From NCBI RefSeq assembly GCF_003334385.1, contig NZ_QOWN01000023.1: DNA of 64,000 nucleotides. One strand, given 5' to 3'. Shown one piece after another: positions 34,803 through 36,766 of the stretch. The stretch is from Escherichia coli (GTDB taxonomy: Bacteria > Pseudomonadota > Gammaproteobacteria > Enterobacterales > Enterobacteriaceae). Each line of letters begins with the position of its first letter. Position 1 is the first letter of the stretch. A program made the translations under genes and the position numbers. The notes under the pieces are model-generated. The model was not told the origin of the DNA. It worked only from the letters and a program-made list of their open reading frames with translations, and did not search any database.

Positions 34803-34839
34803 TCTTCAAGAATTATAGGATTGAAGTTACTAACATCGA

Positions 34840-35379
34840 TTAATTAAACCAGCTGTCCGATTTGTTCTCTTCTGCTTTGCCCACGCTTTTCATCAGATCG
34901 CGACCGCCTTCAGTCATATTTCTGTTGGCGTCAGCTTCAGATTGCACCACATCGGTTTGCGCAGCTTTGTGCTTCAGTTCCTGATCGATAAATTCGTTTT
35001 CTCGCTTAACGCGGGCTTCTTCTTTCGCCAGCGCCAGTTTTTGTTTCTGAATCTCTAAGCTGCGTAGCTCATCTTCATAACTTTGATCGCGTTTTTTGTC
35101 CGCAGAGGCTTCGGCGTCCAGTTTATCCTGACGAGCTTTCTTATTTGCCGCTGCCGTTGCCGCTCTTTTGTTAGCGGCGGCCTGGGCATTTGCGCGACGT
35201 TGCTTCTCTTGCTGGATTTCCCTGTTGCGCTCCGCGACCCATTCGTCATGCTGCCTTTGCTCTTCATTTTTACCTTGCTGTTCCGCTTCTGCGACAGCAG
35301 AGAGTTGATCCTGCAATGATGAGGCGATAGCCGGATAGCTTAAGGAGGCTAAGATGGCGCAAAGAAAAACTTTCTTCAT
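34840..35379 (-). CDS. yfgI: Periplasmic Lys/Glu/Ala-rich coiled-coil protein YfgI
   Basis: 179 aa; signal peptide then K/E/A/Q-rich low-complexity sequence. Confidence 0.85.
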   Translation of the reverse strand: MKKVFLCAILASLSYPAIASSLQDQLSAVAEAEQQGKNEEQRQHDEWVAERNREIQQEKQRRANAQAAANKRAATAAANKKARQDKLDAEASADKKRDQSYEDELRSLEIQKQKLALAKEEARVKRENEFIDQELKHKAAQTDVVQSEADANRNMTEGGRDLMKSVGKAEENKSDSWFN

Positions 35380-35394
35380 GACTCCTCCTGATTA

Positions 35395-35913
35395 TTAGCT
35401 CTTTTCAGGACATTTGGTATTTGGCTGAATACGCGTTTCGTTATACGTCGTGGTAATAACAACGGCTAAACCTGTCGTAAACTGGCACTCTTTACCCACC
35501 TGGGTAGAGGTATACACTTTGGTGCCTTCCTTATAGGTTAAAGAAACACCTTCCACTAAGGTTTTATCATTCACCATAGAACCCGCTGCCGCGCCTACAG
35601 CTCCGCCGCCAACTGCACCTGCCGTCGTTCCGGAATTGCTGCCAGACCCGACGTTGTGGCCGATAACACCGCCAGCGACTGCGCCAATAAGCGCGCCGAA
35701 GGCTTGTGCGTTCCGTTTATTTTGGGAGTTGTCTACGGCAACTTTTGCGGGAAGAATGGAAATAATATTAACGGTTTTAGTTTCTTGTTTGGTATTCAGT
35801 TGATCGGTTTGATAAACATCGGCAGCATGATCGTCAGCATTTGACTGGCATCCTGCCAGAGTGAATGACGCTAACATTGCCACAGGCAGAAGACATTTTT
35901 TAAATTTCATCAC
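35395..35913 (-). CDS. yfgH: Outer-membrane lipoprotein YfgH (glycine-zipper)
   Basis: 172 aa; lipobox LAGC; Gly-rich zipper GALIGAVAGGVIGHNVGSGS... Confidence 0.85.
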   Translation of the reverse strand: MMKFKKCLLPVAMLASFTLAGCQSNADDHAADVYQTDQLNTKQETKTVNIISILPAKVAVDNSQNKRNAQAFGALIGAVAGGVIGHNVGSGSNSGTTAGAVGGGAVGAAAGSMVNDKTLVEGVSLTYKEGTKVYTSTQVGKECQFTTGLAVVITTTYNETRIQPNTKCPEKS

Positions 35914-36223
35914 TATTCCTTGTTATACACATTACGAAAAATAAGACATTTAAGATCATCAAAAGAGGAAAGTAAATGTATTGCGTATAAAGGGATAGAT
36001 TAAATTTATTAAAATTCACGCAGGGAATAATTTATAAAAATATATCATTACAACATATATATTAATTTTATATTTATTTCGCAGCCAAACAGGATAAACA
36101 TCAGTCAGGATAAAGACGTAAAATTTAAGATGAAAGAATATCTGCCGCTTTGATAATCCCAAACAGCAAAAGCATCCGACAGCGAAGTGCCGTTATGTTC
36201 TGTGAAAGTGGAGAAGGTAACCG

Positions 36224-36415
36224 CTAACGTTGTACCGGTGATTCGACGGAGAGTGTGGATTGCTGAGCTTCTTTTTTGCTCTGATGGTGCTGCCAGGCAC
36301 CGACGGACGAGTAGATAAAACGGCCAAAGAAGAAGATAAAGCTGATGAGCAGTACGATACGGGTCATGCGACTGTTAAATCGGTGTCGTTTTCGCATACT
36401 GGTTGCCTGACTCAC
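36224..36415 (-). CDS. yfgG: Small membrane protein YfgG (63 aa)
   Basis: 63-aa ORF with one hydrophobic segment in an AT-rich region; matches known small protein. Confidence 0.7.
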   Translation of the reverse strand: MSQATSMRKRHRFNSRMTRIVLLISFIFFFGRFIYSSVGAWQHHQSKKEAQQSTLSVESPVQR

Positions 36416-36625
36416 AAAAGGTTCCTTGAAGTATGTCCCACGCTGTGGACGGTACTTACATTAAGGCACAACAGGACAAAATGGTCAATTCTTCGTTATG
36501 TAAAAAAGCGTCAGTGGATACATATTTTAATGTTATGGAAGTTAATTTAATTATTTACAATGATGATGTAATAATGATGAATTAACATGATAAACGTAAT
36601 AATTCATTAATCAGGGTTATTTTGT

Positions 36626-36639
36626 TTGATATATATCAA
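36626..36639 (+). promoter_or_regulatory. FNR/CRP-family palindrome TTGAT-ATAT-ATCAA upstream of pdeF
   Basis: Perfect TTGAT-N4-ATCAA, 128-141 bp upstream of the pdeF ATG in an AT-rich leader; pdeF (yfgF) is reported to be anaerobically induced via FNR. Confidence 0.55.
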
Positions 36640-36766
36640 TTGGTACTTTCATATGACACTTAGAATCAATGCTCTCTATAGTGATGAATAATCATCATTC
36701 GAAGTCAGGTGGGATGCCTGTCTGAATACACCTCCTTCAGGATGTGGGGGATTCTGCTGAGCATCT

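Follow-up and report, generated by a model that had tools for sequence, protein, structure and literature searches.

The guaA-pdeF interval and its base composition

The DNA analysed here (the window) is a 64-kb stretch of the Escherichia coli chromosome that extends from csiE to hyfA, and the locus of interest comprises three small genes, yfgI, yfgH and yfgG, located between guaA and pdeF. Gene coordinates come from the annotation of a strain with 100% identity and were mapped anew with BLAST. The guaA gene (33170-34747, plus strand) ends at 34747, and its last 18 nucleotides (34730-34747, plus strand) form an empty attachment site with the core GAGTGGGA at 34736-34743. An inverted repeat between the convergent guaA and yfgI genes (34763-34808) can form a hairpin that contains a terminator-like site (34772-34799) with 12 base pairs and a run of T nucleotides, and this hairpin is likely a bidirectional terminator. 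On the minus strand are yfgI (34840-35379), which encodes a secreted 179-amino-acid DUF5384 protein, and yfgH (35395-35913), which is located 15 bp upstream of yfgI and encodes a glycine-zipper lipoprotein homologous to SlyB; yfgH is the first and yfgI the second gene of a cassette. The yfgG gene (36224-36415, minus strand) encodes a 63-amino-acid DUF2633 membrane peptide and is its own transcription unit. Divergent to it is pdeF (also called yfgF; 36767-39010, plus strand), which encodes a cyclic di-GMP phosphodiesterase with MASE1 and EAL domains. These gene calls and descriptions match exactly the trio of small envelope proteins that an initial annotation of this DNA had placed between guaA and pdeF. 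A 2.2-kb query representing the locus core matches all 5426 complete E. coli genomes, is chromosomal every time, and is covered over at least 80% of its length in 5402 of them. In strain TA8571, the 2.2-kb segment is extended to 3.75 kb, with two IS1 transposase features under the match.

Two intergenic stretches of the locus are AT-rich. The first is a 310-bp region upstream of yfgH (35914-36223, minus strand), which has a GC content of 0.306, lies inside a patch of H-NS binding, and is presumed to be the promoter region of yfgHI. The second is the 351-bp divergent yfgG-pdeF spacer (36416-36766), a regulatory region with a GC content of 0.342. The corresponding values are 0.523 for the window and 0.448 for its pooled intergenic DNA. 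When GC content is computed for sliding segments of 200 bp, the seven lowest values in the 64 kb belong to segments starting at 35851-36551, all within 35851-36750, which bears out the unusual AT-richness previously claimed for both stretches; they fall outside the norms of the window. The AT-richness is far above the ordinary promoter-region AT bias of the window, where only one other spacer, the 85-bp gap between upp and uraA, is as low in GC. Next in AT-richness is the 661-bp timP-sseA spacer (11705-12365), which adjoins the small toxin gene timP and contains 200-bp segments with GC content down to 33%. The description of the locus as repeat-poor also holds, as it carries only two weak 16-nucleotide pairs in addition to the guaA/yfgI terminator hairpin. 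A scan of positions 34000-37500 against Rfam at E ≤ 1 returned no match, and therefore no known RNA family resides in the AT-rich spacers.

The coding regions of yfgI, yfgH and yfgG have mildly low GC content (0.47-0.50). The GC content at third codon positions in yfgH (0.428) is the lowest of 54 genes, and the overall GC content of pdeF (0.466) is the second lowest of the 54. The codon adaptation index (CAI) of the three small genes is 0.34-0.35 compared to a window median of 0.341. The weights follow the Sharp & Li table; absolute values are approximate, and the comparison within the window is more reliable. Atypical codon usage, which had been suggested as a check on the foreign character of the segment, is thus absent.

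The Prokaryotic Genome Annotation Pipeline (PGAP) also calls a 50-amino-acid 'hypothetical protein' (36433-36585, plus strand) inside the yfgG-pdeF spacer, and most E. coli genomes carry this annotation. Conservation of this open reading frame (ORF) is limited to its first ~25 codons, and a family search with the predicted protein yielded no match. Because the ORF has a GC content of only 0.314, overlaps the yfgG promoter, and is interrupted by in-frame stop codons in Enterobacter and Citrobacter, it is probably spurious rather than a gene.

The yfgG/pdeF divergon and H-NS occupancy

Searches by tblastn reveal that the genes yfgG-pdeF-ppx-ppk recur in Enterobacter, Citrobacter, Leclercia, Kluyvera, Pluralibacter, Cedecea, Siccibacter and others, and that the YfgG homologue adjoins ppx in Pantoea and Erwinia. 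Among 17 species, the yfgG-pdeF spacer is 312-384 bp long and AT-rich relative to the hosts, and an FNR-like box is found at a similar position in 13 of the 17. On this comparative evidence, the spacer is an old regulatory region and not foreign DNA.

The YfgG protein matches the DUF2633 family over the entire model (PF11119, E value 4.3e-28, model positions 1-43 of 43), and a single hydrophobic stretch, IVLLISFIFFFGRFIY, can be read off its sequence. Sequencing of a dual-barcoded shotgun expression library (Dub-seq) and random barcode transposon-site sequencing (RB-TnSeq) have established that yfgG is both required and sufficient for tolerance of nickel and cobalt. Expression of yfgG is ~2.2-fold higher anaerobically in wild-type cells (Myers 2013), where the direction of the ratio is taken from that of yfiD in the same table. 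The perfect FNR box in the spacer (see below) is ~180 bp from the yfgG start, which is too distant for classical activation of this gene. Nickel import for hydrogenases is induced anaerobically, and anaerobic induction of a nickel- and cobalt-tolerance peptide would fit this physiology.

A transcription start site (TSS) for yfgG and a peak for sigmaS from chromatin immunoprecipitation with sequencing (ChIP-seq) have been mapped to the yfgG-pdeF spacer, and genomic SELEX (systematic evolution of ligands by exponential enrichment) has located sites there for RpoD, H-NS and PgrR. The proposed yfgG promoter, TTGACC-17-CTTAAT (36460-36488, minus strand), has its −35 element at 36488-36483 and its −10 element at 36465-36460. 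Its hexamers were published by Shimada 2014 and were located in the window by reading the sequence. The exact promoter is uncertain because the published TSS and the sigma70 peak map ~8-15 nucleotides downstream of the prediction made from the proposed −10 element.

Upstream of pdeF is the FNR box TTGATATATATCAA (36626-36639, plus strand). This perfect consensus match is the only occurrence of TTGAT-N4-ATCAA in the 64 kb, compared to 0.07 expected by chance, and the same motif is listed with an FNR ChIP peak at K-12 position 2627088 (Myers 2013, Tables S5 and S6). If TAGAAT at 36661-36666 is the −10 element of pdeF, the box would be centred near −41.5. Another hexamer pair for pdeF, at 36653-36682, was proposed by Shimada 2014. 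A scan for the sigma70 consensus was uninformative, with five sites found compared to 4.8 expected, and one of these sites coincides with the published pdeF hexamers.

Published data also establish that H-NS occupies the locus in vivo. Regions bound by H-NS in K-12 were mapped by ChIP-chip to 2624400-2628963 under aerobic conditions (4563 bp) and to 2626274-2628408 under anaerobic conditions (2134 bp) (Myers 2013). Using the FNR motif as an anchor, these correspond to window positions ~34757-39320 and ~35312-37446, respectively. The aerobic patch spans the guaA terminator, yfgI, yfgH, yfgG and the whole of pdeF, and genomic SELEX likewise found the yfgF/yfgG spacer to be bound by H-NS. In an hns stpA mutant, FNR occupancy at the yfgG-pdeF spacer rises from 0.35 to 1.68, and O2-dependent expression of pdeF is seen only in this mutant (Myers 2013). 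The proposal that the region is likely silenced by H-NS is therefore supported with respect to binding, on the basis of ChIP-chip, SELEX and the hns stpA effect, but is too broad with respect to silencing of the region as a whole. Specifically, yfgG is not silent, because its promoter exhibits a strong sigma70 ChIP-seq peak as well as the sigmaS peak. The listed anaerobic sigma70 ChIP-seq peaks include this strong signal and none in 35914-36223, and the combination of H-NS occupancy with the lack of a listed peak upstream of yfgH suggests that yfgHI might be silenced by H-NS.

A probable mechanism for the divergon is that the 351-bp spacer carries a sigma70/sigmaS promoter for yfgG and an FNR-dependent promoter for pdeF, both belonging to an old backbone unit. 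H-NS and StpA on the spacer and on pdeF would limit the access of FNR while yfgG is still transcribed, so that pdeF would be largely silent in standard media. YfgG itself would act as a small inner-membrane peptide that guards against nickel and cobalt.

The yfgH-yfgI pair and the guaA attachment site

The YfgH protein carries the lipobox LAGC at residues 19-22, which is conserved in all cassette copies, and a recent preprint identifies it as an outer-membrane lipoprotein by SignalP and fractionation. A glycine-zipper 2TM domain (PF05433, E value 7e-8) is located at residues 73-114, and the TraT family in Pfam is also matched (E value 2.5e-6). Searches of the PDB align YfgH over its full length with SlyB (7ojf, E value 3.9e-10, residues 8-164 versus 5-154) and, more distantly, with TraT (9e2v, E value 0.0019). 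In an NCBIfam search, neither YfgI nor YfgG was assigned to a family, and the matches of YfgH to YiaD/PRK11280 were all below threshold. According to the preprint, loss of yfgH causes sensitivity to sodium dodecyl sulfate (SDS) with ethylenediaminetetraacetic acid (EDTA), to vancomycin, and to the depletion of either LptD or BamA. Depleting these proteins also induces the yfgH transcript, and mutations in clsA suppress the yfgH defect. The preprint also presents AlphaFold 3 models in which YfgH forms rings, for which its authors call the biochemical evidence not strong. A PhoP-like repeat, TGTTTATCCTGTTTG, is present upstream of yfgH, and we do not claim it as a binding site given that its spacing is 9 instead of 11.

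Although they are outer-membrane glycine-zipper lipoproteins, several homologues of YfgH bear the name 'DNA methyltransferase' in PHROGs and in the RefSeq records of phages, including P7 upf50.5 (positions 3476-3997 of locus L093), gp55 of prophage TL-2011b (positions 5916-6431 of locus L092) and phrog_1277. This label is a propagating annotation error that needs correction, as does the label on the 50-amino-acid ORF described above.

The YfgI protein matches DUF5384 over the entire model (PF17358, E value 9.1e-62, model positions 1-145 of 145). Its commonest residues are alanine (17%), glutamate (12%) and lysine (11%), and an AlphaFold2 model depicts a signal peptide followed by one ~160-residue helix (helix 15-178; predicted local distance difference test score 85), both of which agree with the K/E/A-rich coiled-coil protein described earlier. 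No solved relative of YfgI was found in a search of the PDB. The C-terminal half of the protein is highly conserved. Among E. coli strains, alleles of 179, 177, 175, 173, 172 and 170 amino acids are present; these lengths point to frequent in-frame insertions and deletions in the low-complexity, Ala/Lys/Gln-rich N-terminal half (residues ~60-95), with a nearly invariant C-terminal half. Survival of a yfgI mutant in nalidixic acid is reported to be 7% of that of wild type, and this sensitivity might be a permeability effect rather than a DNA-repair defect because YfgI is exported. With published phenotypes available for YfgH, YfgG and yfgI, the view that the functions of these proteins are poorly defined is outdated.

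Proteins of the DUF5384 family are rare, with 258 members at E ≤ 0.001 among 5.8 billion proteins, and they are found in Escherichia and in a few Citrobacter, Pseudocitrobacter, Salmonella and Enterobacter. A scan by tblastn anchored on GuaA, with one genome per species and at least 80 loci from Enterobacterales and neighbouring orders, detected yfgI and yfgH in only one of 80 species loci, that of Escherichia albertii. The pair also occupies the guaA slot of Citrobacter portucalensis and Salmonella bongori, and a Salmonella enterica genome retains a decayed yfgH-yfgI remnant. Orthologues of yfgHI have been reported in S. Typhi and not in Typhimurium. A second chromosomal slot is located between rseC and lepA, where yfgH-yfgI is found directly downstream of rpoE-rseA-rseB-rseC in the same orientation (positions 4471-5540 of locus L096 and 2239-3308 of locus L097), and this copy could be co-transcribed with the sigmaE envelope-stress operon. 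In another lineage, a third slot places the pair beside tauD and a taurine-utilisation cluster.

The pair is also found on mobile elements. Mobilizable plasmids of 4-8 kb carry it, and phage P7 encodes it as upf50.5/upf50.0, with the immI region on one side and the tail-tube operon on the other. Among plasmid matches, 186 of 200 have less than 60% identity, and all 28 of those listed are on plasmids of 64-372 kb. The one plasmid of this low-identity group that was examined is of the IncY type and has P1-type icd and antirepressor genes. Plasmid records contain 201 YfgH homologues and 200 YfgI homologues with the same taxon split and adjacent coordinates, and the gap between the two genes is 3-15 bp in all copies. 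Three plasmids assigned to Vibrio and one Staphylococcus aureus cluster (P0103) carry near-identical or related DUF5384 genes, and these records may be mis-assigned or contaminated rather than reflect the true host range. In the chromosomal contexts measured, the GC content of the cassette is below that of the surrounding locus, and the plasmid and phage copies are the lowest (0.42-0.44). An AT-rich upstream stretch of 250-510 bp with a GC content of 0.27-0.39 is present in both chromosomal and P1/P7 contexts. Alignment of these upstream regions revealed no conserved promoter block beyond the chromosomal ribosome-binding region, and the mean column identity is 48%. The yfgH-yfgI pair is therefore a portable two-gene unit that exists in three chromosomal slots, on P7/P1-like plasmids and on small Mob plasmids.

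The two genes stay together on chromosomes, phages and plasmids alike, and work on YfgH should take yfgI into account; the recent YfgH study makes no mention of it. The complementation of the yfgH deletion speaks against a polar effect on yfgI, for that one phenotype only. The presence of the pair on many P1-like phage-plasmids circulating in E. coli and Salmonella suggests a conversion function. A search with PADLOC gave no defence-system match, and a literature search found no paper on DUF5384 or upf50.

On its other side, the cassette borders an active hot spot for integration. Of the 5426 complete E. coli genomes, 856 (16%) have the guaA-yfgI junction split at 34733-34749. For example, strain PSS-15 carries an integrative and conjugative element (ICE) with a tyrosine integrase and TrbL at the guaA 3ˊ site, and the attR of prophage TL-2011b keeps ATTGAGTGGGAATGA, the last 15 nucleotides of guaA. 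The GenBank/RefSeq record of TL-2011b takes in ~3.5 kb of host DNA that includes yfgI, yfgH, yfgG and part of pdeF. The core GAGTGGGA is identical to the published attB core of GIsul2 and its relatives (PMC9376610). In the window this site is intact and empty. The window contains no second copy of it, and a search for a relic of the guaA core around the cassette, allowing up to three mismatches, found none.

The guaA-yfgG gap is hypervariable among genera: it is as short as 137 bp in Cedecea, measures 288 bp in Siccibacter, and reaches 8 kb in Pluralibacter. Reading of ORFs, as opposed to family searches, indicates cargo that includes transporters with a LysR regulator, a pair resembling trimethylamine N-oxide (TMAO) reductase, an MscS-like channel, toxin-antitoxin-like genes, and a bacteriocin-export set. 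This variability may be attributed to integration at the guaA 3ˊ end, as is visible in E. coli.

Interpretation and comparison with known systems

We consider it probable that the locus consists of two units under one H-NS-coated, AT-rich patch, namely the old yfgG/pdeF divergon and an acquired yfgH-yfgI cassette. The second unit would be a horizontally acquired operon with its own AT-rich upstream region, inserted between yfgG and the guaA 3ˊ site. Its genes would be kept quiet by H-NS and then released by counter-silencing through an envelope-stress regulator; induction on damage to outer-membrane biogenesis is published. YfgH would place its glycine zipper in the outer membrane and there probably assemble into rings that keep outer-membrane proteins and lipids together. 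After export, YfgI would be a long periplasmic helix, and as its gene is never seen without yfgH, it most likely acts as a partner of YfgH.

This interpretation departs from the initial annotation, which treated yfgI-yfgH-yfgG as one cluster and as the most accessory-like segment of the window. There are instead two transcription units that are also two evolutionary units. The accessory label is appropriate for yfgH-yfgI, which is lineage-restricted and mobile, and is inappropriate for yfgG, which belongs to a backbone conserved across Enterobacteriaceae. Within E. coli the whole locus is core, and the CAI of all three genes is normal. The proposed presence/absence comparison is accordingly split, with yfgHI patchy among genera, the locus universal in E. 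coli, and yfgG/pdeF conserved.

The most serious alternative, which we regard as possible yet doubtful, is that yfgH-yfgI was ancestral to Escherichia, Salmonella and Citrobacter at the guaA slot and was repeatedly lost, and that phages and plasmids captured it from the chromosome. Consistent with this scenario, slot and orientation are common to E. coli, E. albertii, C. portucalensis, S. bongori and S. enterica, identities drop roughly with phylogenetic distance (85%, 79-83%, 70-82%), and the decaying S. enterica copy would represent a loss under way. It accounts poorly for other Citrobacter and for Enterobacter, Leclercia, Kluyvera and Pluralibacter, which hold different cargo in the slot, for the reduced GC content of the cassette relative to the host locus and most of all on plasmids and phage, and for the two further chromosomal slots. 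Even if correct, it alters the direction of transfer and not the portability of yfgH-yfgI.

It is unlikely that the locus is simply an ordinary core region, in which long promoters and vertically inherited envelope genes are accompanied by passive H-NS binding without regulatory meaning. The invariably chromosomal occurrence in all E. coli genomes, the CAI values at the median, the conserved spacer length and FNR-like box of the divergon, and the 987 sites reported for H-NS by SELEX, which make such binding common, would all be expected of a core region. However, yfgH-yfgI is missing from 79 of the 80 sampled species loci and exists on phages, on plasmids and in three chromosomal slots. Likewise, FNR occupancy and O2 regulation of pdeF are altered in the hns stpA mutant, and the spacers hold the lowest-GC segments of the 64 kb. 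Very improbable is a single functional envelope-stress cluster of yfgI, yfgH and yfgG, as might be guessed from their shared strand, adjacency, envelope location and common H-NS patch, since a 310-bp spacer with a terminator-like site (36192-36177) separates yfgG from yfgH, yfgG is expressed from its own sigmaS/sigma70 promoter while the region upstream of yfgH has no listed sigma70 peak, yfgG accompanies pdeF/ppx in species that lack yfgHI, yfgHI occurs without yfgG on phages, on plasmids and in other slots, and the phenotypes (nickel and cobalt tolerance versus outer-membrane integrity) are unrelated.

Several points weigh against the model of an old divergon joined by an acquired cassette. 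The locus is universal in E. coli and normal in CAI, and therefore any acquisition must be ancient. There is no integrase, transposase, flanking repeat or relic att site around the cassette in the window, and the guaA slot common to Escherichia, Citrobacter and Salmonella would fit vertical descent with many losses just as well, and could also stem from a single old acquisition that was later lost many times. The sample of 80 species is drawn from taxa other than Klebsiella, Salmonella, E. fergusonii and E. coli itself. With regard to H-NS, the transfer of K-12 coordinates to the window uses a single motif anchor (K-12 2627088) in the opposite orientation, with a precision of roughly ±15 bp. 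Moreover, Table S6 of Myers 2013 gives the overlap with nucleoid-associated proteins at the FNR motif as 'None', yet the regions in Table S3 of the same study span this motif. No hns-mutant expression data were found for yfgH-yfgI, and a yfgHI reporter has been described as regulated by SdiA in S. Typhi and not in E. coli.

The genes, their Pfam families, the binding of H-NS, FNR and sigmaS, and the main phenotypes are already on record, and the finding as first written is known. What has apparently not been stated before is that the locus is a mosaic, in which a conserved yfgG/pdeF divergon adjoins a portable yfgH-yfgI module that P1-like phages and small plasmids also carry; this is a modest refinement. 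The yfgH-yfgI locus is not a new kind of system. Rather, it is a neat small example of H-NS covering a mosaic of old and acquired DNA beside an active integration hot spot.

A more tentative idea, which we put forward with low confidence and by analogy, is that YfgH-YfgI might be a portable two-component armour or exclusion module of the outer membrane. It would serve P1-like prophages and small plasmids in lysogenic or plasmid conversion, and its domestication in Escherichia would have placed it under the control of H-NS and stress, with YfgI as the obligate partner by which the YfgH ring is linked or regulated. If this is true, the module might make the host outer membrane more stable or hide its proteins, as a protection against other phages, colicins, complement or conjugation partners, as with the distant relative TraT. 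The ~160-residue helix of YfgI would be about as long as the periplasm is wide, and a model based on YfgH as a single protein would be incomplete. Any such role in exclusion or conversion is speculative.

Comparison with known systems places these features in context. Like the guaA 3ˊ hot spot used by GIsul2 and its relatives, the window carries the attachment core, and in 16% of E. coli genomes this site is used by an ICE or a prophage. Unlike GIsul2-type islands, the site in the window is empty, and yfgHI lies beyond it without an att duplicate. Delivery of the cassette by the GIsul2-type integrase family is therefore not obvious. The locus also resembles AT-rich islands subject to xenogeneic silencing by H-NS (Myers 2013), in that its DNA is AT-rich, H-NS covers several kb of it, the masking of FNR is lifted in the hns stpA mutant, and it includes a pair of lineage-restricted genes. 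It differs from such islands because half of the patch (yfgG and pdeF) is conserved backbone, yfgG is transcribed despite the patch, and the acquired part is only ~1.5 kb, lacks mobility genes and is fixed in the species.

Among proteins, the closest parallel is SlyB, which is regulated by PhoPQ and has known structures (PDB 7ojf/7ojg). YfgH shares with it the lipobox cysteine, the glycine-zipper 2TM domain and a small C-terminal domain, and likewise protects the outer membrane during SDS/EDTA and biogenesis stress and has been modelled as rings. However, suppressors map to clsA for yfgH and to the Mla pathway for slyB, and YfgH is always accompanied by YfgI, is found on phages and plasmids, and has a conserved pair of cysteines in its C-terminal domain. 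In contrast to yfgH, slyB is not known to have a DUF5384 neighbour. The resemblance to TraT, the surface-exclusion and complement-resistance protein of F-like plasmids (PDB 9e2v, 9fs5), is a distant similarity over the zipper and the next domain, and both are outer-membrane lipoproteins on mobile elements. This similarity is weak and partial, and TraT is larger (225-261 amino acids). Lastly, the upf50.5/upf50.0 pair of P7 keeps the gene order with a 3-bp gap, has 67% identity to YfgH and 47% to YfgI, and is preceded by DNA with a GC content of 0.30. It differs from the chromosomal pair in its prophage location, associated with immI and the late tail-tube operon, and the GenBank note for P7 already records the similarity of its products to E. 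coli K-12 proteins.

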